From: Candidatus Moranbacteria bacterium RIFCSPHIGHO2_01_FULL_55_24
Lineage (GTDB): Bacteria > Patescibacteriota > Minisyncoccia > Moranbacterales > UBA1568
NCBI GenBank assembly: GCA_001786575.1
Contig: MFRW01000001.1
Location: forward strand, 22,179-86,178
Direction of reading: 5' to 3'
DNA: 64,000 bases
This document shows positions 2,542-64,000 of the stretch, piece by piece. The stretch's first letter is position 1. Every line of letters starts with the position of its first letter. The notes under the pieces are model-generated. The model saw nothing but the letters and a program-made list of their open reading frames with translations. It was not told where the DNA came from and did no database searches. The translations under genes and the position numbers were made by a program.

Positions 2542-3756
2542 GTGTATAATGGAAACATGAACAGAAAATATCTCATCTTCGGAATTTTCGCGGTGTTTTT
2601 TCTCATTCTTGCGGGAGTAGCATGGAACTATTTGGGATTGGATCGGAAAACCTCGACTCCGGGCGAGAAAGTCGTCTTGGATGAGAGGGAGAAAGTCTCT
2701 CCCGAGGATCAGACCGGAGCGGTCGCAGAGAAAGAGTGGGTGACAGAGACGGTCGCAGAAGGGCTCGTCGTCCCGTGGAGCCTCGCTTTTACGGCCGAGA
2801 ACCGTATGCTGGTGACCGAGCGGCCGGGGAGGGTCCGGGCCATCGTGGACGGGGAGCTCCTCGAGAAACCGCTCTACACATTCAAGGACGTCTCTTCGAC
2901 CGGCGAGGAGGGTCTCATGGGACTTGCAATCGATCCGCACTACGCGGAGAACCGCTACCTCTACGTTTCTTATGCCTACGGCAGTCCGCTTCGGGTGAAG
3001 GTGGTGCGTCTCAAGGACGAGGGCGAAGCGCTTTCCGAGCCTACGGTGATTCTGGATAAGATTCCGGCCGCACAGTATCATGCCGGCTCGCGCCTGAAGT
3101 TCGGTCCTGATAAGGCTCTGTACATCACGACGGGGGATGCCACGGATAAGGCGCTCGCCCAGAACATGCAGAGTCTTGCCGGGAAGATCCTCCGGATCAA
3201 CACGGACGGCTCGATTCCGGAGGATAATCCGGATCCGGCGAGCCTGGTCTATAGCTACGGTCATCGCAATCCGCAGGGTATCGCTTGGGATCCGTATTCC
3301 GGAGAGATGTATGCGACGGAGCATGGGCCAAGCGTTTTCGACGGTCCGGCCGGAGGCGATGAAGTGAACCATATCATGCCGGGCGCGAACTATGGTTGGC
3401 CGCTCGTCTCGCATGAGAAGAAGCTGGACGGTACCGAAGAGCCGCTGCTTCTCTTTACGCCGGCGATCGCGCCGTCCGGGGCGACGTTCTACTCGAGCGA
3501 TAAGATCCCGCAGTTTACGGGGAAGTTCTTCTGGACAGCACTCAAGGGAGAAGGGGTGTTCATGGGAACGGTGGATGTGGAAGACCCGGATGATTTCGAT
3601 GATTATGAGAAATTGCCGAACCTTGATTATGGGCGGATCCGCGACATCGTCGAGGGACCGGATGGTGCGTTGTATTTCCTGACGAGTAACCGGGACGGCC
3701 GCGGCAAGCCGCAAGCGGGGGACGACAAAGTCATCCGGTTGAGAACCAAGGAATAA
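2542..3756 (+). CDS. PQQ-dependent sugar dehydrogenase (soluble quinoprotein glucose/sorbosone dehydrogenase family), signal-anchored
   Basis: N-terminal hydrophobic anchor then beta-propeller motifs (LVVPWSLAF, GLMGLAIDP, GSRLKFGPDKALYITTGD, YSYGHRNPQGIAWD, GWPLVSHE). GTG at 2542 or ATG at 2557. GGAGGAGGG RBS upstream. Confidence 0.7.
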   Translation: MYNGNMNRKYLIFGIFAVFFLILAGVAWNYLGLDRKTSTPGEKVVLDEREKVSPEDQTGAVAEKEWVTETVAEGLVVPWSLAFTAENRMLVTERPGRVRAIVDGELLEKPLYTFKDVSSTGEEGLMGLAIDPHYAENRYLYVSYAYGSPLRVKVVRLKDEGEALSEPTVILDKIPAAQYHAGSRLKFGPDKALYITTGDATDKALAQNMQSLAGKILRINTDGSIPEDNPDPASLVYSYGHRNPQGIAWDPYSGEMYATEHGPSVFDGPAGGDEVNHIMPGANYGWPLVSHEKKLDGTEEPLLLFTPAIAPSGATFYSSDKIPQFTGKFFWTALKGEGVFMGTVDVEDPDDFDDYEKLPNLDYGRIRDIVEGPDGALYFLTSNRDGRGKPQAGDDKVIRLRTKE

Positions 3757-3775
3757 GCGAGTTGGGAAAAAGAAA

Positions 3776-3803
3776 AGACCCTCTTTCGGGAGGGTCTTTT
3801 TTC
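3776..3803. terminator. Bidirectional intrinsic terminator between convergent genes
   Basis: Stem AGACCCTC/GAGGGTCT with a 6-nt loop, T-runs on both sides. Confidence 0.7.
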
Positions 3804-52835: not shown

Positions 52836-54236
52836 ATGTCGAAATTTAAAGATGGCCTCAAAGGCTTGGGAACGCTCCCAGCGCTTTTGATCGTCGTGGT
52901 GTCTTTCGGAGGATTTCTCGCAGCCGCGTCCATCGTGACGCACAACCAGCTGGCTTTGTCGCCGGTTTCTTTGGCGAAAGACGGCGAGGATGATGGCGGT
53001 GACAGCGAAGATAGCAAAGATAGCGAAGATGAAGACAAAGATGAAGATAAAGACGAGGACAAGGATGAAGATAAAGACGAAGATAAGTCTTTAGAGAAGG
53101 AAAGAGAAGCAGCCAAGAAGCAGGCCGAGCGTGAGCGCGAAGCCGCGAAGAAGAAGTCCAATAGCGGCCAAGGCGGCGATAACCTCTCTCTAGACGAGAA
53201 TGAAACGGAAGACGAGCTGGATGATGTAGAAGAAGACGAGCTGGATGATGAGCAACAGGCCGAAACAGAGAAGGCCATGTACAAGGATCGTACTAAGACT
53301 CTCGAGAAGCTGAACGAAGAGATCTACGAGGCCGAGAAGAAGATCATGGAAGCCAAGGCCGAAGGGGTCAATGTGAGCAAGGCGCTTGCAACTCTCGGAC
53401 TTGCCAAGGCGAAGATTGCCGAAGTAGAGCGAGCATTCAGCACATCCGACCTCGAAGCAGCGAAGCGTCTCGCCAAGGAAGTGAAGAAACTCGCGCATTT
53501 CGCGCGCAACGAGGATTTTCATGACGCCGAGAAACTTACCGAAGACCTTTCGAAGATCGCCAAGCGCATCTCGCAGGCTCGCGGCAAGATCGTGCTGTAT
53601 GAATCGCTTGGTGGTGACGGATCGGCATTTGCGAACTCGCTGAACAATCTTGAAGCGGAATTCAATGTCACCAAAGCGACTATCGCCGCGGGCGGAGACG
53701 GATCTCTTTCCGCTATTGATTCTCTGGATACCTTGGAGCGCAAGATAAAGTCCGTAAAGAGCAGCGTGGAGAACTCCATCTACGCTCTCGGCGGTACGGA
53801 TGAGGAATACGACGACGATTATAAGGACGAAACAGAGGACCTCATGGCAGAACTCGAAGATGTGGCGGAAATTGAGGGCGAGGACCTCGGCAAGCAGGTG
53901 CGCACTATCGCTCGTGCCCAGGGGATTTCGGCCAGCAAGGTAGGTGATACGGTAGAAAGTATCGATAACCGCAATGCTGCGCTTCAGTTCCTCTTCGGCA
54001 CCAAGAAGAGCGAGATCGAAAAATTGGAACAAGAAATTGCTGCCAACAAGGCGCGTGTCGATCTGCTCATCCAGGCTGCAGCCAAGGTCGAGGATCCAGA
54101 TGTGAAGCAGATCCTCCTAGACCAGGCAGAAGTTCTTAAGCAGGAGACCGCGAAGCTCGAAACCTTCGTTTCCGGTCAGAAGAACCGTTTGAGTCTCTTC
54201 GGCTGGCTCCTCAACCTGAACCCCGGCCAGAATTAA
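52836..54236 (+). CDS. Signal-anchored coiled-coil protein with (DEDK)n acidic repeat
   Basis: TM LLIVVVSFGGFLAAASIV, then DSEDSKDSEDEDKDEDKDEDKDEDKDEDK, then extended heptad-like Ala/Lys/Glu-rich coiled coil. Confidence 0.55.
   Translation: MSKFKDGLKGLGTLPALLIVVVSFGGFLAAASIVTHNQLALSPVSLAKDGEDDGGDSEDSKDSEDEDKDEDKDEDKDEDKDEDKSLEKEREAAKKQAEREREAAKKKSNSGQGGDNLSLDENETEDELDDVEEDELDDEQQAETEKAMYKDRTKTLEKLNEEIYEAEKKIMEAKAEGVNVSKALATLGLAKAKIAEVERAFSTSDLEAAKRLAKEVKKLAHFARNEDFHDAEKLTEDLSKIAKRISQARGKIVLYESLGGDGSAFANSLNNLEAEFNVTKATIAAGGDGSLSAIDSLDTLERKIKSVKSSVENSIYALGGTDEEYDDDYKDETEDLMAELEDVAEIEGEDLGKQVRTIARAQGISASKVGDTVESIDNRNAALQFLFGTKKSEIEKLEQEIAANKARVDLLIQAAAKVEDPDVKQILLDQAEVLKQETAKLETFVSGQKNRLSLFGWLLNLNPGQN
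53025..53087 (+). repeat. 12-nt tandem repeat (GAWGAYAARGAY) x about 5 encoding DEDK repeats
   Basis: gaagatgaagacaaagatgaagataaagacgaggacaaggatgaagataaagacgaagataag. Confidence 0.7.
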
Positions 54237-54262
54237 GCCAAAGACAGGAGAAAAGCTGAAAA

Positions 54263-54285
54263 AGAGGGAGAAATCCCTCTTTTTG
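54263..54285 (+). terminator. Intrinsic terminator
   Basis: AGAGGGA/TCCCTCT stem with a 4-nt loop, followed by TTTTT. Confidence 0.7.
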
Positions 54286-54323
54286 CTTGATTAAAGATCC
54301 ATTGAAATGTTTACGATATAATA

Positions 54324-54351
54324 TTGACAAATAGAGAAATTCGGGATATAT
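54324..54351 (+). promoter_or_regulatory. Consensus sigma70 promoter TTGACA-N17-TATATT driving the radical-SAM operon
   Basis: -35 at 54324-54329, -10 at 54346-54351, in an AT-rich spacer. Confidence 0.6.
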
Positions 54352-54356
54352 TCAGC

Positions 54357-54375
54357 TGTCAGAAACATTCTGACA
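54357..54375 (+). promoter_or_regulatory. Operator-like perfect palindrome TGTCAGAA-ACA-TTCTGACA at the predicted transcription start
   Basis: 8-3-8 inverted repeat starting 6 nt downstream of the -10 hexamer. Confidence 0.5.
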
Positions 54376-54417
54376 ACTTTTCTTTAACAAATTAGCCGAT
54401 AAAGAAGGGAAGTCAAA

Positions 54418-55500
54418 ATGTCTCATCAAGCTTTGTTCTGGAGGGTTGTGATGCAACCAACTTCCTTCTGTAATTTGAATTGTAGCTATTGCTATTTGAA
54501 GTACAGAAGAAGTAGCTATAAGATGAGTGTCACTGTGGCTCAAAGTGTGGCGCAGTCCGTCTTTCAAGCGGGTAATCCGGTAAGAATATTGTGGCATGGC
54601 GGTGAGCCATTGAGCTGTGGCAAGAAGCACTTCCAATCGCTACTTACGCCTTTCCAAGGCCTATGCGAAGCTCATATGGCCTCTCATTATATCCAGACAA
54701 ATGCAACTCTCATCAATGAAGAATGGTGCAGATTCTTCATTAACAATAATGTCCATGTGGGGGTAAGCATAGATGGGCCTGACTGGGCTAATAGAAATAG
54801 AACCGACTGGTCAGGAAGATCGTCGTTTAGCAGAATAATGGCTGGGGTATCATATTTAAAAGAATTTGATATACCATTTAGTGTTATCTGTGTTATCGAT
54901 GAATCAAGCTTGGAGAAGGCTGAAGAAATCTATACCTTCTTCTGCAATCTTGGATGTAGCGAGGTTGCATTTAATATCGAGGAGAAGCTTGGAATACATG
55001 AAACAAGTGCTCCGGATGATTCCAGACGTATAACAAACTTCTGGGCAGAACTGTTTAGATATTGGAAGGAAAGGCCGAATATCCCGATAAGGGAGGTGGA
55101 CAGGACTTTGCGTTGGATAGCAGCTCAAGAGGGTCCACAAGGAGATCCAGTAATAGAAGATTTCTTCCCTAGCGTTGCATATGATGGGAAGGTAGTATTG
55201 CTTTCCCCAGAGTTTCTCGATGTTTCCTGCAAGCTTTATTCTGATTTTTGTGCAGGAAATGTTTTGGATAGCACGTTAAATCAAATATGCGCCAAGGCAA
55301 AAAATCTTCAATACATTCAAGATTACTTGGAAGGTTTAAGAAAGTGCAAATCGGAATGCGAATATTTTGCATTCTGTAAGGGAGGCCAGGCAGCGAGTAA
55401 ATATTTTGAACATGGTACTACATGTGCCACGGAAACGGTATACTGCCGCAATTCAGAACAAAGGCTGCTTGAGGGAGTTCTTCAGTCAATAGAAGCTTGA
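54418..55500 (+). CDS. Radical SAM enzyme with C-terminal SPASM domain, anSME-family (peptide/protein-modifying maturase)
   Basis: N-terminal CNLNCSYCY (CxxxCxxC). Motifs ILWHGGEPL, IQTNATLINEEW and VGVSIDGP align with anaerobic sulfatase-maturating enzyme. C-terminal cluster CKSECEYFAFCKGGQ...C...C. No sulfatase gene in the window. Confidence 0.8.
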   Translation: MSHQALFWRVVMQPTSFCNLNCSYCYLKYRRSSYKMSVTVAQSVAQSVFQAGNPVRILWHGGEPLSCGKKHFQSLLTPFQGLCEAHMASHYIQTNATLINEEWCRFFINNNVHVGVSIDGPDWANRNRTDWSGRSSFSRIMAGVSYLKEFDIPFSVICVIDESSLEKAEEIYTFFCNLGCSEVAFNIEEKLGIHETSAPDDSRRITNFWAELFRYWKERPNIPIREVDRTLRWIAAQEGPQGDPVIEDFFPSVAYDGKVVLLSPEFLDVSCKLYSDFCAGNVLDSTLNQICAKAKNLQYIQDYLEGLRKCKSECEYFAFCKGGQAASKYFEHGTTCATETVYCRNSEQRLLEGVLQSIEA

Positions 55501-55530
55501 TGTTCTCTAATCGAAAGGAGGTGAGTTAGA

Positions 55531-55713
55531 GTGAGTGATTTGCAGAGCAGGTTGGTCAATAAAAGTTCTATGGCTACGGAAATCCTGGTTAAAACAGGAT
55601 ATGCCGAGGCCACAGAATTCTCTGCTGATGCCAATACTAGCCATGTAAAGGCTTTCAGCAAAGGCTGGGATAAGGGCTGGGGCAAGAGTGGCGGTCCTGG
55701 ACCGGATAGGTAA
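55531..55713 (+). CDS. Candidate RiPP precursor peptide (60 aa) with C-terminal KGWDKGWGKSGGPGPDR
   Basis: GTG start 10 nt after an AAGGAGG RBS, 30 nt downstream of the rSAM stop. Lys/Trp/Gly-rich C-terminus with a WGK motif. Followed by a strong hairpin. Confidence 0.45.
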   Translation: MSDLQSRLVNKSSMATEILVKTGYAEATEFSADANTSHVKAFSKGWDKGWGKSGGPGPDR

Positions 55714-55718
55714 AACTA

Positions 55719-55757
55719 GAGGGCTGGAGCTATAATATAGCTACAGCCCTCATTTTA
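55719..55757 (+). terminator. Stem-loop (attenuator/terminator) immediately after the candidate precursor gene
   Basis: AGGGCTG...CAGCCCT outer stem enclosing palindromic AGCTATAATATAGCT, followed by TTTTAAT. Confidence 0.55.
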
Positions 55758-55765
55758 ATGTATTT

Positions 55766-56578
55766 ATGGATAAAACTATCATTTCAAGGCAATTAAAAAA
55801 TGCCTATAAAAGACTAAATCACAAGGAGTATAAATCACCCTATAAGTACAAGCTTAAAAAGGGAAAACAGATACTCTATTTTTTCGGTTCCCGACATTCT
55901 TATAATCCAAAGGATGTGCAATTTGTTGAACTTCGGGACTTTTGGGATGATTTTCAAAAGAACGTTTCTGGCCCATATGAAGTTCTTATAGAAGGAGGCA
56001 AGAGGAGTAATAAATTTAAGGATGAAATTGAAGCAATAAAAAAGGAAGGAGAATTAGGCTTAGTGTATTTTTTAGGAAAAAAGGCTGGCGTAAAAATTGA
56101 TTCTCCCGATCTTTCTGATAGAGATTGGTTCAATGGTCTAGCGAAGATATTTAATAGGGACTTCGTAGCTTATTATGATTTTATTCGGGTTGCTTATCAG
56201 TGGAACAGGACTGACAAAAGCATATCTTTTAAAAAATATGCAAGCAGTTTCCTTAAGCAGAATGAGAAAAGTGTTCATTGGAAGGATTTTGATTTTTCTT
56301 TAAAAAATATGCAGCGTATTCATAAGGAGCTCTTTAAGACGCCTTTTGATGAGAACGATCAAAATTTCCTTGTATCTTTGCTTGATGTAAATTCGGATAA
56401 GTCGGTTATTAATGAAATTTCACGTTACGATGACGAGGGATTTCGCGATTTGAAAATTATCGACAATATCTCCAAAGAATGGAGCAAGAAATTAAGCCTT
56501 TTTATAATTTTTGGTGCCCCGCATGCCATTGTTATGAGAGACATTTTAAAGAAGATAGTTGGAGGAGGCGCTAAATAA
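55766..56578 (+). CDS. Hypothetical protein, very low GC (about one-third by eye), Lys/Phe/Asp-rich
   Basis: 270 aa. No recognisable domain. Composition unlike the rest of the chromosome. Confidence 0.45.
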   Translation: MDKTIISRQLKNAYKRLNHKEYKSPYKYKLKKGKQILYFFGSRHSYNPKDVQFVELRDFWDDFQKNVSGPYEVLIEGGKRSNKFKDEIEAIKKEGELGLVYFLGKKAGVKIDSPDLSDRDWFNGLAKIFNRDFVAYYDFIRVAYQWNRTDKSISFKKYASSFLKQNEKSVHWKDFDFSLKNMQRIHKELFKTPFDENDQNFLVSLLDVNSDKSVINEISRYDDEGFRDLKIIDNISKEWSKKLSLFIIFGAPHAIVMRDILKKIVGGGAK

Positions 56579-56624
56579 GCCTTTCTGGCTTGTGTTTATT
56601 TGGTGGTAGAATAAGGTCAACACT

Positions 56625-57377
56625 ATGTCCCAGTACTACAATCCTCGGAGGACGCGCAATATCTTCGATCCGGCGAGCACGGAGCCCTTCCGCTTGAGCC
56701 GCAGCCGCTTGGAGCTCTTCATGAGCTGTCCGCGCTGCTTCTACCTGGACCGGCGCCTGGGTATAGACCGTCCTCCAGGATACCCGTTTTCCTTAAACTC
56801 GGCCGTGGACACGCTCCTTAAGAAGGAATTCGATATCCACCGCGCGGCAGGCACGAGCCACCCGCTCATGGATACCTATGGCGTTGATGCGGTGCCGTTC
56901 CAGCATGAGAAGATGGAAGAATGGCGCGACTCGCTCCGCCGCGGAATAACCTTCTATCATGAGGAGAGCGGATTCTTCTTCACCGGAGGCGTCGATGACG
57001 TCTGGGTGGATCCGGACGGTGAACTGATTATCGTCGACTACAAGGCGACCGCCAAAGACGGTGAAGTGACGCTTGATGCCGAGTGGCAGGGCGGGTACAA
57101 GCGCCAGATGGAGATGTATCAGTGGCTCTTCCGCCAGAATGGCTTCCAGGTATCGGACACCGGCTACTTCGTCTATTGTAACGGCCAGACGGACCGCAAG
57201 GCTTTCGATGGCAAACTGGAATTCACCGTGAAGCTCATTCCGTACTCCGGAAGCGATGCCTGGGTTTCCGATACCCTTATGGCGGCGCGCGAATGCTTGG
57301 AACAGTCCGAAATCCCGCAGGCTCACCCCGACTGCGACTACTGCGCCTATCGCAAAGAAACCGCAAAGGTGGAATAG
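56625..57377 (+). CDS. PD-(D/E)XK nuclease with CxxC...CxxC cluster (Cas4/RecB-nuclease-domain-like), stand-alone
   Basis: N-terminal CPRCFYLD. Motif GVDDVWVDPDGELIIVDYKAT (D...D-x-K). C-terminal CDYCAY. No cas genes or repeats nearby. Confidence 0.55.
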   Translation: MSQYYNPRRTRNIFDPASTEPFRLSRSRLELFMSCPRCFYLDRRLGIDRPPGYPFSLNSAVDTLLKKEFDIHRAAGTSHPLMDTYGVDAVPFQHEKMEEWRDSLRRGITFYHEESGFFFTGGVDDVWVDPDGELIIVDYKATAKDGEVTLDAEWQGGYKRQMEMYQWLFRQNGFQVSDTGYFVYCNGQTDRKAFDGKLEFTVKLIPYSGSDAWVSDTLMAARECLEQSEIPQAHPDCDYCAYRKETAKVE

Positions 57378-60916: not shown

Positions 60917-61498
60917 CTATTTCTTTTTCTTGACTAAAAAATTAAAAAAATGCCAGTGTTTGGTGGTTCCGACGGCGGTGGAACCATCTTTTTCAATTTC
61001 TTCGAATTTGATCACTTCATAGCTGCCTAAGAGATCTTCCGTCTCTTGTTTTGTAAAGAAAGTCATCTTGGTTTCGGGGGTATTCCATTCATCCCGGTCT
61101 CCAAAAAGCTGGCCGCAGAATATAGCGCCAGGCTTGAGAGATTCTCTGATTCCTTTCCAGACTTTGGGGAAGTCCTCCTTTCTTAGGAAAGGGAGCGTAA
61201 ATTGTGAACTGACTAGATCGAAATGTTCCGTAGGGAAGTCATAGCTTTCGGTGCCACCGAATCTATAGCTGAAACGAGGATCTTTGATCTGCTCTGCTAA
61301 AGCTGGGAATTCCTTGGCGGAATCTATAGCGACTACCTCCTGGAATCCTTCCGCCAAGAGCCGCTTGACATCATTCAGAGTTCCAGCTCCTATATCGAGA
61401 GCAGAGCCTTTTTCGGATATGAAATTCAAACTTTCCACCAAAAGGGGTCGAGCAGGTGTCTGGTGAGTTTTTCGATAGTATGCTGACCAGTCAGGCAT
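60917..61498 (-). CDS. Class I SAM-dependent methyltransferase (small, TehB/UbiE-like)
   Basis: Motif I SALDIGAGTLNDVKRL; acidic post-I residue AID. Confidence 0.7.
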   Translation of the reverse strand: MPDWSAYYRKTHQTPARPLLVESLNFISEKGSALDIGAGTLNDVKRLLAEGFQEVVAIDSAKEFPALAEQIKDPRFSYRFGGTESYDFPTEHFDLVSSQFTLPFLRKEDFPKVWKGIRESLKPGAIFCGQLFGDRDEWNTPETKMTFFTKQETEDLLGSYEVIKFEEIEKDGSTAVGTTKHWHFFNFLVKKKK

Positions 61499-61693
61499 AG
61501 ATTTCTGATAATTTTATCTAAATCATACCCCAGTCTTTATTATATTGGAAATCTATCAGAAAACACCATTTATGTGACCCATTTTAAATTTTAAATAAGA
61601 CTATAAGAGCCCAAGAGCAATCCAGGGCTTTGTTTTTTTGAGGGAGGTGCTAAAATCGGGGTAGCTGTTTCTAACTGAAATAACAGGAAAAAT

Positions 61694-62095
61694 ATGCTTA
61701 ATTTGAAAATCCAGACCGTGCCCGATGATCAGCAGCGCTACAATACCGTAGGCGACTACTACCTGAATGACAAAGGGGAACGCATCTTTGTGATTTCGGA
61801 TATGCGAGACTGGCGCTACGAGATTCTGACAGCCGTCCACGAGCTGGTGGAGAGCGCGCTCTGCAAGCATCGGGGCGTCACAGATGAACAGATAGACGCC
61901 TTTGATCTCGAGTTTAGCGAGAAAAGAGCTACAGGAGACGTGAGCGAGCCGGGGGATTCTCCGGAAGCCCCATACTACAGGGAACACCAATTCTCCAATA
62001 AGATAGAGAAGATGCTGGCGGATGAGCTGAAAGTGGATTGGGAACAGTACGGGAAAACAGTGGATACGCTCATGAGAAATACCGAAGTCATCTGA
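61694..62095 (+). CDS. Hypothetical protein
   Basis: 133 aa. No domain recognised. Confidence 0.4.
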   Translation: MLNLKIQTVPDDQQRYNTVGDYYLNDKGERIFVISDMRDWRYEILTAVHELVESALCKHRGVTDEQIDAFDLEFSEKRATGDVSEPGDSPEAPYYREHQFSNKIEKMLADELKVDWEQYGKTVDTLMRNTEVI

Positions 62096-62278
62096 AAAGC
62101 CTAGCATTTAAAGGAGTTGTAGATTGCCGAGCCCTCTTGACATAATTTAATTTATAGATATAATATAATCACTTTGCTAAGCTTTCTCAAAGGGGGAATG
62201 GATGAAAATTCATTCCCCTTTCATTTTTTTACTTTTTCTTTGTTCCATAATTCTATCCATTTTATTAACTTTAAAAAA

Positions 62279-62893
62279 ATGCGCTTCTACAAAAATCTTT
62301 CAGATGATTTACATTGCTTCCAGGCTTCTTTAAAGATGGTGCTTTCAATCTATTTCCCTTCAGAGGAATTCTCATTCAAACAAATAGATAAGGCTACCGG
62401 TTTTAAGAAAGATAAGGGGACCTGGGATGCCAGGGGCTTTCTCTGGCTTGCCAAGAAAGGTTTCCGGATAATCCGTATTTCGGATTTTGATTATAAGAGA
62501 TTCGCGGATGAGGGTGAAAAGTACCTAAAATGGTTCTGGATGCCAGAAGTGTACGAATACCAAAAAAAGTATTCGGACTTTAAAAATGCTCAGAGGGCAG
62601 TTAAGGGTCTTTTGGATTATGCGAATTTTATTTTTCGGCGGCCTCTCCTTTCGGATATAGATAAATATGCGAGGAAAGAAGGTTCTACAATGATGGCTTC
62701 TGTGAATCCGAAGGTCCTTGATCACAAAGGGGGCTATGGAAACCATGTGGTAGTTATCGAGTCTATCTCAAAGAAGTATGTCGTTTTTAGTGACCCCGGC
62801 TTGCCTCCCGAGCCTCATCGGAAGGTTACGAGGAGCCTTTTTAAGAAAGCCTTATTTGAGCTTATAGTGATTACTCCTGCTAGTTTTAAATAG
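62279..62893 (+). CDS. C39-like / papain-fold cysteine peptidase domain protein (Peptidase_C39_2 / BtrH-N-like)
   Basis: Cys motif DLHCFQASLKMVLSIY and His motif GNHVVVIESISKKYVVFSDP. Low GC. ATG at 62279 within ORF 62174..62893. Confidence 0.5.
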   Translation: MRFYKNLSDDLHCFQASLKMVLSIYFPSEEFSFKQIDKATGFKKDKGTWDARGFLWLAKKGFRIIRISDFDYKRFADEGEKYLKWFWMPEVYEYQKKYSDFKNAQRAVKGLLDYANFIFRRPLLSDIDKYARKEGSTMMASVNPKVLDHKGGYGNHVVVIESISKKYVVFSDPGLPPEPHRKVTRSLFKKALFELIVITPASFK

Positions 62894-62995
62894 AGAAAAT
62901 AGGAATGTTAGATTATTTGAAAGCCCTGACTTGTCCCAGGGCTTTGATTTTTGCTTGGAAATGGTAGAATTGAATTATCTATTTGAACTTTATTT

Positions 62996-63835
62996 ATGCA
63001 TGAGACGAAAGAATACTGGTCAATGACAGAAGGAGTTTTTAATTGTTTGTTTGATAAAGAAAGAACGGAAGCATTTGCCAAGGCAATTCAGAATACTGTA
63101 AAAGAAGGGGATGTCGTTGTAGATATGGGAACGGGGAGCGGTATCTTGGCTATGCTTGCTGCCCAGGCAGGAGCAAAGAAGGTGTACGCTATTGAGTTTG
63201 ATGAGAATAACTACAGGAATCTTGAGAAGGTATTCAAAGTAAATGGTTTCGATCAGATTGTTTTATTAAATGAAGATGTGCGTTCTGTTGAAATTCCTGA
63301 AAAAGTGGACGTCATTATTGGAGAAATGATTGCGACGGGACTTATTGAGGAACAGCAGATCCAGGCTATGAATAACATCCTAAAATATACAAATCTGGGA
63401 TGTAAGACACTTCTAAAGAAGTACACTAATTATATAGACTGTGTTTATAACAAAGATCAGTATTACGGGCTACAGTTTCCCATTGTAAGGTATGAGTATT
63501 CAGGCGAGTCAGAATTAGAGTCCTGGCCGCTTACCGGCAAAGAGTCGTATTCAGTGACTGATTTTTCTAAGATTACCTCTGAAGAAGAACGGGTTGTTGA
63601 TAAAACCTTGAATCTTGTTGCGATAAAGGATGGTAAAATAAACGGGATAAGAATCAGTAGCGAAACAGAGTTTTCTGACGGTACAAAATTCTGGGGATCT
63701 TTTGCCTATAGTTACCCTATTATTCTTCCTGTCGAGGATGTTGAAGTTAAGGAAGGAGATAGGATTCAAGTGAAAATAAGCTACGTTTTATGCGGGGGAT
63801 TCAATAATCTAAAGTATTCTCTAAATAAAGATTAA
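62996..63835 (+). CDS. Protein arginine N-methyltransferase (PRMT)-like SAM-dependent methyltransferase
   Basis: [30 protein letters not shown] matches PRMT motif I / post-I ([27 protein letters not shown]). Double-E-like region IIGEMI. C-terminal beta-barrel-length region. Low GC. Confidence 0.6.
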   Translation: [279 protein letters not shown]

Positions 63836-63837
63836 GT

Positions 63838-64000
63838 ATGTTTTGCGAAGCTTTTCCTGATATACAGTTCTTTATTTTTACGAAACATGTTCCGTCGCTG
63901 CTTTACTATTCACATATCCCGACCGCTCTTACAGCCTTACTGATCGGCTTCTTTATTTATGTTAAAAGTAATCGGAATCAACTTTCAAAAATACTCCTTT
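63838..64000 (+). CDS. Hypothetical membrane protein, 3' truncated by window edge
   Basis: ATG at 63838. Hydrophobic N-terminus (LTALLIGFFIYV). Open to the end of the window. Confidence 0.3.
   Translation, partial: MFCEAFPDIQFFIFTKHVPSLLYYSHIPTALTALLIGFFIYVKSNRNQLSKILL

Follow-up and report, generated by a model that had tools for sequence, protein, structure and literature searches.

In a 64,000-nucleotide stretch of DNA from Candidatus Moranbacteria bacterium RIFCSPHIGHO2_01_FULL_55_24 (hereafter the window, to which all positions refer unless a locus is named), a gene for a radical S-adenosylmethionine (SAM) enzyme is followed on the forward strand by a small open reading frame (ORF) at 55531-55713, which codes for 60 amino acids, and then by the gene for a 270-residue partner protein. 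We propose, with a probability of about 0.78, that the small ORF encodes the precursor of a triceptide-type peptide of the class made on ribosomes and modified after translation (RiPP) and that the adjacent radical SAM enzyme is its maturase, the type of cross-link being predicted from the family to which this enzyme belongs.

Triceptides are defined by an aromatic1-X2-X3 motif in which a radical SAM three-residue cyclophane-forming enzyme (3-CyFE) has bonded the aromatic ring to the Cβ of X3 (PMC11499958). In the characterized 3-CyFEs, Trp-C6, Trp-C7, or Phe-C4 is joined to the Cβ of Asn, Asp, Arg, or Ser; with XncB and OscB, it is C6 or C7 of Trp that is bonded to Cβ (PMC11002830). Both parts of such a system are present in the window: an enzyme of the three-residue cyclophane-forming group with a CxxxCxxC motif and, next to it, a small precursor with conserved aromatic1-X2-X3 motifs, which recur as W/F-x-K(R/N) repeats in eight further syntenic ORFs.

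The putative precursor ORF and its relatives

The small ORF begins with GTG, 30 nt downstream of the stop codon of the maturase gene, and translates as (V/M)SDLQSRLVNKSSMATEILVKTGYAEATEFSADANTSHVKAFSKGWDKGWGKSGGPGPDR, with FSKGWDKGWGKSGGPGPDR at the C-terminal end. An earlier description, made from the letters of the window and a list of its ORFs (the sequence-only reading), had seen here a leader-plus-core peptide beside a radical SAM gene, with two Trp and three Lys among its final 17 residues. The translation contains exactly these residues (KGWDKGWGKSGGPGPDR), the upstream gene is of the AmcB class, and matching small ORFs occur in related loci, as described below. The same description had placed an AAGGAGG ribosome-binding site 10 nt ahead of the GTG codon; this Shine-Dalgarno sequence is present, at a spacing of 9 nt. 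Residues 2-11 of the peptide (SDLQSRLVNK) align with xTLKxRxxxK, the conserved leader start of its relatives, and this alignment supports the GTG codon, as had been assumed, over the internal ATG (Met14) chosen by one gene caller. The core probably starts at F42, in which case it would hold three aromatic-x-Lys motifs (FSK, WDK, and WGK) rather than two.

Searches with the peptide sequence against Pfam and NCBIfam gave no match even at an E-value of 10. To that extent the gene is unannotatable by homology, as had been stated earlier, but relatives could be found through synteny. A word-indexed search of 5.8 billion proteins returned two near-identical copies and no other match; one of these copies had been called from Met14.

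We examined the DNA of nine loci with maturases 46-53% identical to that of the window (L066, L068, L154, L155, L156, L157, L158, L159, and L160), which are its closest relatives; the few with a name belong to 'Candidatus Liptonbacteria' and 'Candidatus Zambryskibacteria'. Directly 3' of the maturase gene, eight of these nine loci have a small ORF, 45-63 aa long. All eight share the leader start given above and a periodic core of the form (W/F-x-K-G)n, based on Phe in one case; examples are WNKGWNKDGH, WQKGWDKGWNKDGH, WDKNWEKGWNKDGH, WDKGWDKGWDKGWGKTGK, WNRGWGKGWGKYGKT, and FNQFNNGFNKVGKP (the C-terminal ends are listed in Table 1). The Phe-based variant, with Phe throughout, is encoded at 3615-3782 of L158, a Liptonbacteria-type locus. 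At L159, the maturase and partner genes have only an uncalled frame between them, and this frame (approximately 3590-3800) contains six W-x-x motifs (WRNTDWDKWVKWEADPWSNVTEPDWKN). One further W-x-K relative came from a scan of metagenomes with an alignment, which otherwise returned mainly actinobacterial AmcB loci and more distant GrrM-like loci: at this more distant locus, L074, the small ORF contains WNKGWNLFNK. A contig scan with the single maturase gave only distant relatives, mostly similar to anaerobic sulfatase maturases and 24-38% identical, none of which was usable for synteny.

In an alignment of 10 peptides (A4), W46, K48, G49, W50, K52, and G54 are invariant or nearly so. The Lys and Gly codons and the identity of the middle residue differ between loci while Trp and Lys are retained, which places the constraint on the protein level. 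The sequence-only reading had taken conservation of the frame next to radical SAM homologs as the mark of a peptide, and disrupted frames within conserved nucleotides as the mark of an RNA element; the former was found in all but the ninth locus, together with the opposite of the latter, namely intact frames with varying codons. Moreover, a profile built from the eight syntenic small ORFs and that of L074, with the window peptide excluded, was run on the 679 small ORFs of the window and picked only 55531-55713 (30.5 bits, E-value 1.3e-8; the runner-up scored 8.4 bits). The pattern W.K.W.K occurs in just 1 of these 679 ORFs.

A strong hairpin follows immediately 3' of the ORF. In it, GAGGGCTG (55719-55726) pairs with CAGCCCTC (55744-55751), a perfect palindrome, AGCTATAATATAGCT (55728-55742), lies between them, and ATTTTAAT forms the tail. 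The segment 55705-55775 folds with a free energy of -24.2 kcal/mol (z = -4.4; 0 of 200 shuffled sequences fold as well) and the hairpin sequence occurs once in the window, so the nested structure pointed out earlier is real. A GC-rich hairpin with a U tract, mostly UUUUU or longer, stands right after the precursor stop codon in eight of nine loci folded, the window included. When the window hairpin was tested as an intrinsic terminator, its stem was strong, but its tail is AUUUUAAU and the consensus scan did not call it. The sequence-only reading had called the structure an attenuator; its place behind the precursor is indeed conserved, and the hairpin (55719-55751) is better called terminator-like than a regulated attenuator. 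It is probably leaky and would then set the ratio of the maturase-precursor transcript to the partner transcript.

The hairpin, and the fact that one gene caller skipped the ORF in the identical contig L070, could be taken to mean that the region is a non-coding RNA element, i.e., an attenuator or 3' untranslated structure of the maturase mRNA in which the reading frame is fortuitous. However, other gene callers do call the ORF, an intact frame preceded by a Shine-Dalgarno sequence follows the maturase gene in all but one of the nine loci and is conserved as protein rather than as nucleotides, and a search of the operon against Rfam returned nothing relevant (at E-values up to 1, only two chance-level matches elsewhere in the scanned region). 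Given the protein-level constraint, the profile score, and the lack of a relevant Rfam family, we reject the non-coding explanation.

The maturase and the partner protein

The maturase scores 450.3 bits against NCBIfam NF041718 ('cyclophane-forming radical SAM peptide maturase AmcB'), for which the curated cut-off is 425. The second-best family is GrrM/OscB (TIGR04261), whose cut-off of 310 is not reached (284.8 bits), leaving the enzyme outside that family. Lower-ranked matches are to anaerobic sulfatase maturases (150 bits), DynA, YhhB, FxsB, DarW/DarE, and XyeB; the scores against DarE (87.4 bits) and DarW (93.9 bits) compare with cut-offs of 650, so that the enzyme does not belong with the daropeptide maturases either. 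No StrB- or WgkB-type model is found among the best 25 of its 60 family matches. Pfam recognizes the Radical_SAM domain and makes no call of a SPASM domain.

The CxxxCxxC motif (C18, C22, and C25) is invariant in 40 relatives. Across 40 AmcB-clade sequences (alignment A1), C310, C314, C320, and C343 are invariant as well, which suffices for one auxiliary cluster, whereas the remaining C-terminal cysteines (C271, C278, C291, and C336) vary. Since the cysteines of a second auxiliary cluster are not conserved, the AmcB clade may be twitch-like instead of carrying a full SPASM domain. Full invariance extends to C104 in the same alignment, and C180 comes close to it.

The partner gene starts 14 nt past the hairpin stem. 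The order maturase, small ORF, partner (approximately 262 aa; 259-270) recurs in L066, L068, L154, and L158 and, as judged from the gene table only, in the P0041 contig; in total, the partner was found in 7 of 11 loci. The window protein shares 41-45% identity with the products of the genes in this place at L066 and L068, and the flanking genes beyond the cassette are unrelated between loci. A word-indexed search with the 270-residue sequence returned only a fragment of the partner itself, and an exhaustive HMMER search of 1.84 billion proteins yielded a family with 677 representatives at an E-value of 1e-3 or less.

In 62 members of this family, H44, E76, and R227 never vary, and G41, E96, G250, and H253 hardly do. 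The conserved set thus comprises two His, two Glu, and one Arg, the signature described for hydrolases of the TIKI superfamily (PMC6254334). Its order and spacing match those of the Escherichia coli TraB-family protein YbaP (G41xxH44, E76, R227-D, and G250xxH253 versus G38xxH41, E67, R233-D, and G249xxH252). Sub-threshold Pfam matches were obtained for several of the 62 members (TraB_PrgY_gumN for 14, DUF5694 for 6, and ChaN for 2), covering the C-terminal third of the profile, and the AlphaFold2 model has a predicted local distance difference test score (pLDDT) of 95.5 and an alpha/beta pattern of secondary structure. From these features we regard the partner, with moderate to low confidence, as a candidate TIKI-like peptidase. 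We know of no role of the TIKI/TraB/PrgY/GumN superfamily in RiPP maturation. Marginal local matches of a partner profile to PDB sequences, namely to the VbhT Fic helix (E-value 0.003) and to a sulfotransferase (E-value 0.08), were rejected as due to chance or local similarity, since the Fic catalytic motif is absent.

No recognizable Shine-Dalgarno sequence precedes the partner gene, either in the window or in the relatives inspected, which suggests that its translation is kept deliberately low. Most of the precursor genes, unlike the partner genes, have a strong one. A TATAAT box lies in the loop of the hairpin; as a candidate promoter of the partner gene it was rejected, since its -35 region is poor and the scan did not call it.

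Predicted cross-linking chemistry and competing explanations

If the peptide is a triceptide precursor, the maturase and precursor genes would be co-transcribed from the promoter-like site at 54324-54352, and the strong Shine-Dalgarno sequence together with the GTG codon would give efficient translation of the precursor. The AmcB-class enzyme (54418-55500) would recognize the N-terminal leader (SDLQSRLVNK...). By reductively cleaving SAM, it would then take a hydrogen from the Cβ at the third position in every aromatic-x-Lys motif, and the radical left there would attack the aromatic ring (indole or phenyl) at the first position; each motif would thereby close to a strained three-residue cyclophane and lose 2 Da. 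Rings would be expected at W46-D-K48 and W50-G-K52, and possibly a third at F42-S-K44. The hairpin would end or attenuate transcription past the precursor, so that less of the partner is made, and the partner (55766-56578), with its TIKI-type 2His/2Glu/Arg signature, would probably trim the leader or the tail off the cross-linked peptide.

The actinobacterial AmcA/AmcB system, which produces a multiple cyclophane-containing RiPP, resembles that of the window in several respects: the window maturase passes the AmcB cut-off, the precursor lies directly 3' of the radical SAM gene, and several aromatic-x-x motifs stand near its C-terminus. As a control, the small ORF right after the radical SAM gene of actinobacterial AmcB loci was scored against NF041722; at 106.8 bits it is a bona fide AmcA, and the gene order is therefore the same as in the window. 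In contrast, the AmcA core (AWNHFENIPTFYNWNNRPR) is non-periodic with Asn or His at X3, whereas the window core follows (aromatic-x-K-G)n, the hosts are actinobacteria rather than candidate-phyla-type bacteria, and the window enzyme shares approximately 44% identity with the named AmcB proteins. The TIKI-like partner was not seen in the actinobacterial loci examined, among which no systematic search for it was made. A region downstream of the actinobacterial AmcA gene, apparently conserved in several frames, matches no Rfam family; we suspect that it is a gene on the other strand. In our reading, the window system pairs a maturase of the AmcB class with a precursor family that is different and has no model. 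For the enzyme class a model already exists; the same cannot be said, as far as the literature covered goes (the AmcB and triceptide-landscape papers apart), of the precursor family with its (aromatic-x-K-G)n core, of the host group, or of the partner.

Other known systems share single traits with the window peptide. Precursors of the GrrM/OscB type are likewise rich in Gly and repetitive, with several three-residue motifs starting with Trp or Phe. The OscA-type precursors, described from cyanobacteria, are longer. OscB links Trp-C7 or Phe-C4 to the Cβ of residue i+2 (PMC11002830), and its characterized sites have Asn or Asp at X3, where the window peptide has Lys. Cross-linking of aromatic-x-Lys motifs is known from HtkA, in which a ring carbon of the HTK motif is bonded to the Lys Cβ, as established by nuclear magnetic resonance (PMC11499958), and from MicA, in which losses of 2 Da were placed by tandem mass spectrometry on YSK and FTK motifs (PMC12912966); HtkB also takes WTK, at low yield. 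HtkA/HtkB and MicA/MicB differ from the window system in that they belong to other maturase clusters (from Betaproteobacteria and other groups), their motifs are single or non-periodic, and their native aromatic residue is one other than Trp.

In darobactin (DarA/DarE), a ring is formed on a W-x-K triplet. The window core is without the W-x-W ether motif of darobactin, the architecture of the precursor is another one, and there is no DarBCD-type exporter. By analogy, tandem W-x-K rings might serve as a rigid strand mimic, as the W-x-K ring of darobactin does.

The literal WGK triplet of the window peptide recalls the streptococcal WgkA/WgkB system, in which the radical SAM enzyme WgkB makes a Trp-Lys cross-link on WGK (PMC11851443). 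The neighboring enzyme could accordingly modify the precursor by a chemistry other than that of triceptides: a WgkB-like double link on WGK (Trp-C5 to Lys-Cα and Trp-C6 to Lys-Cδ), a WprB-like bond from Trp-C5 to Cγ, or an oxidation of X3 (side reactions of the formylglycine or aminomalonate type). That the AmcB clade, like WprB, keeps cysteines for one auxiliary cluster only (PMC11851443) and that the maturase resembles anaerobic sulfatase maturases would fit such a chemistry, which we nevertheless consider unlikely. The best-scoring families are all formers of three-residue cyclophanes (AmcB, GrrM/OscB, YhhB, FxsB, and XyeB), and neither a WgkC/WprC-like partner with a RiPP recognition element (RRE) nor an shp/rgg context is found. 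Among the relatives, the middle residue is free (D, G, N, E, or Q), and WGK itself is not conserved. WgkA/WgkB, for its part, belongs to another enzyme lineage (the StrB/WgkB group), uses a separate RRE protein, and stands in a quorum-sensing context; no RRE-like gene occurs in the cassette.

It is also conceivable, but highly improbable, that the ORF encodes an unmodified small protein or signaling peptide, such as a pheromone on which the TIKI/TraB-like partner acts, and that the radical SAM enzyme acts on another substrate. TraB and PrgY relatives have been mentioned in peptide-pheromone systems (PMC7117660), and the evidence for a modification of the 60-residue peptide is indirect. Nevertheless, where an unrelated gene replaces the partner, it is the radical SAM gene, not the partner, that the small ORF stays with; conservation falls on precisely those aromatic and third positions at which enzymes of this class make cross-links, and the cassette comprises neither a signal peptide nor an export gene.

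Several observations weigh against assigning the window system to the triceptides and against the roles given to its parts. All of the chemistry is deduced from family membership; the AmcB score exceeds its cut-off by only 25 bits, with the closest named AmcB proteins at approximately 44% identity; and with one set of auxiliary-cluster cysteines retained, the mechanism may depart from that of the classical SPASM 3-CyFEs. The window peptide and six relatives gave no match to the AmcA models NF041722 and NF041723 at E-values up to 10, the threshold for AmcA being 65 bits. No transporter or immunity gene is present with the cassette, and the U tract behind the window hairpin is weak (four U), so that it was not flagged by the terminator scan. 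As for the partner, the TIKI assignment is sub-threshold (the best score is 22.8 against a gathering score of 26.8, over the C-terminal third of the Pfam profile), a Foldseek search of its model against the PDB gave no neighbor, and an hhalign comparison of the partner family with E. coli YbaP was negative. L155, L156, and L160 carry an unrelated gene of 163-187 aa in the partner position, and P0256, a remote representative of the partner family, does not stand beside a radical SAM gene. At L162 (1-440), P0256 is instead preceded by a 94-residue coiled-coil-like ORF and a hairpin, with neither maturase nor precursor, which indicates that the partner family is broader than the RiPP cassette.

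If the triceptide assignment is correct, triceptides would gain an (aromatic-x-Lys-Gly)n precursor family that current annotation models miss, and similar clusters would now be labelled merely as 'radical SAM protein' with hypothetical genes. It would mean that a conserved RiPP cassette exists in candidate-phyla-type bacteria, which have very small genomes and few recognized natural-product genes, and that tandem Trp-to-Lys cyclophanes are to be predicted, rings which darobactin has made interesting to pharmacology. The TIKI/TraB-like protein would become a candidate for a new class of peptidases that tailor RiPPs. The host is an uncultivated groundwater-type bacterium, and with the cassette a bacterial group that is poorly understood would gain natural-product chemistry; at 2.2 kb, with one enzyme and one peptide, it is directly testable. 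A more far-reaching and rather doubtful idea is that genome-reduced candidate-phyla (Parcubacteria-type) bacteria keep and exchange the compact cassette, the product of which would be a short cationic tandem Trp-Lys cyclophane peptide released by the TIKI/TraB-like peptidase. The envelope of the host, or that of competing bacteria, could be where such a peptide acts; if this were true, it would provide a tractable molecular handle on the interaction of these episymbionts with other cells.

Limits of the cassette and other features

Table 1 Features of the cassette and C-terminal ends of related small ORFs.
Feature	Position	Strand	Remarks
AmcB-class peptide maturase of the radical SAM type (360 aa), three-residue cyclophane-forming group	54418-55500	+	NCBIfam NF041718
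Shine-Dalgarno sequence AAGGAGG	55515-55521	+	GGAGG/AAGGAG-like sequences before most orthologous small ORFs
Putative precursor peptide gene, 60 aa	55531-55713	+	leader approximately residues 1-41, core F42-K52, tail SGGPGPDR
Core FSKGWDKGWGK	55654-55686	+	Gly-separated F42-S-K44, W46-D-K48, and W50-G-K52 as predicted cyclophane sites
Terminator-like hairpin	55719-55759	+	8 bp, 1x1 mismatch, 6 bp, loop AAU; then AUUUUAAU
Partner protein of 270 aa, conserved; TIKI/TraB-like hydrolase candidate, putative leader peptidase	55766-56578	+	signature residues, sub-threshold Pfam
Low-GC island over three-gene cassette	54250-56600	.	34-44% GC versus 53-60% in flanks; three genes together 39.6% versus 53-56%
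Palindromic terminator-like hairpin	54259-54284	.	11-pair stem, T runs on both sides; closes preceding gene, left edge of cassette
Sigma-70-like promoter TTGACA-17-TATATT	54324-54352	+	upstream of maturase; 11/12 consensus positions; consensus match only
Terminator-like hairpin	56575-56593	+	right edge of cassette
L066 small ORF C-terminus			AWNKGWNKDGH
L154 small ORF C-terminus			SWQKGWDKGWNKDGH
L068 small ORF C-terminus			DWDKNWEKGWNKDGH
L156 small ORF C-terminus			NWDKGWDKGWDKGWGKTGK
L155 small ORF C-terminus			NWNRGWGKGWGKYGKT
L157 small ORF C-terminus			NWNKGWGKYGKT
L160 small ORF C-terminus			SWNKGWGKYGK
L158 small ORF C-terminus (Phe version)			FNQFNNGFNKVGKP

The three genes of the cassette coincide with an island of low GC content whose boundaries fall at the two outer terminators, while in the nine related loci the GC content of the cassette equals that of its flanks. 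The sharp island in the window and the differing flanks elsewhere point to a self-contained unit and suggest that this genome acquired it horizontally, in a recent event. A PD-(D/E)XK gene at 56625-57377 was considered as a further member of the cluster and rejected, since it falls beyond the low-GC island and none of the other loci has it.

On the other side of the cassette, the preceding gene (52836-54236) encodes a protein of 466 aa with an N-terminal hydrophobic segment, a strongly acidic low-complexity stretch of the form (EDKD)n, and long helical regions, for which no Pfam or NCBIfam family match was obtained. A second stretch of low GC content (37-46%) extends from 61200 to 64000, the end of the window, and could have been acquired as well. 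At 54357-54375, past the promoter-like site and ahead of the start codon of the maturase gene, there is a short hairpin (TGTCAGAAACATTCTGACA) with a T-rich run behind it; it may be a structure of the 5' untranslated region or a chance match.

The gene that takes the position of the partner in three of the related loci (L155, 3890-4453; L156, 3594-4136; L160, 3857-4348) encodes a protein with conserved FHG(T/S) and YA(T/S) motifs and only a weak match to DUF952, which may represent a second type of tailoring or processing enzyme. The precursors of these three loci end in GWGKYGK(T) or GWGKTGK in place of GWNKDGH.

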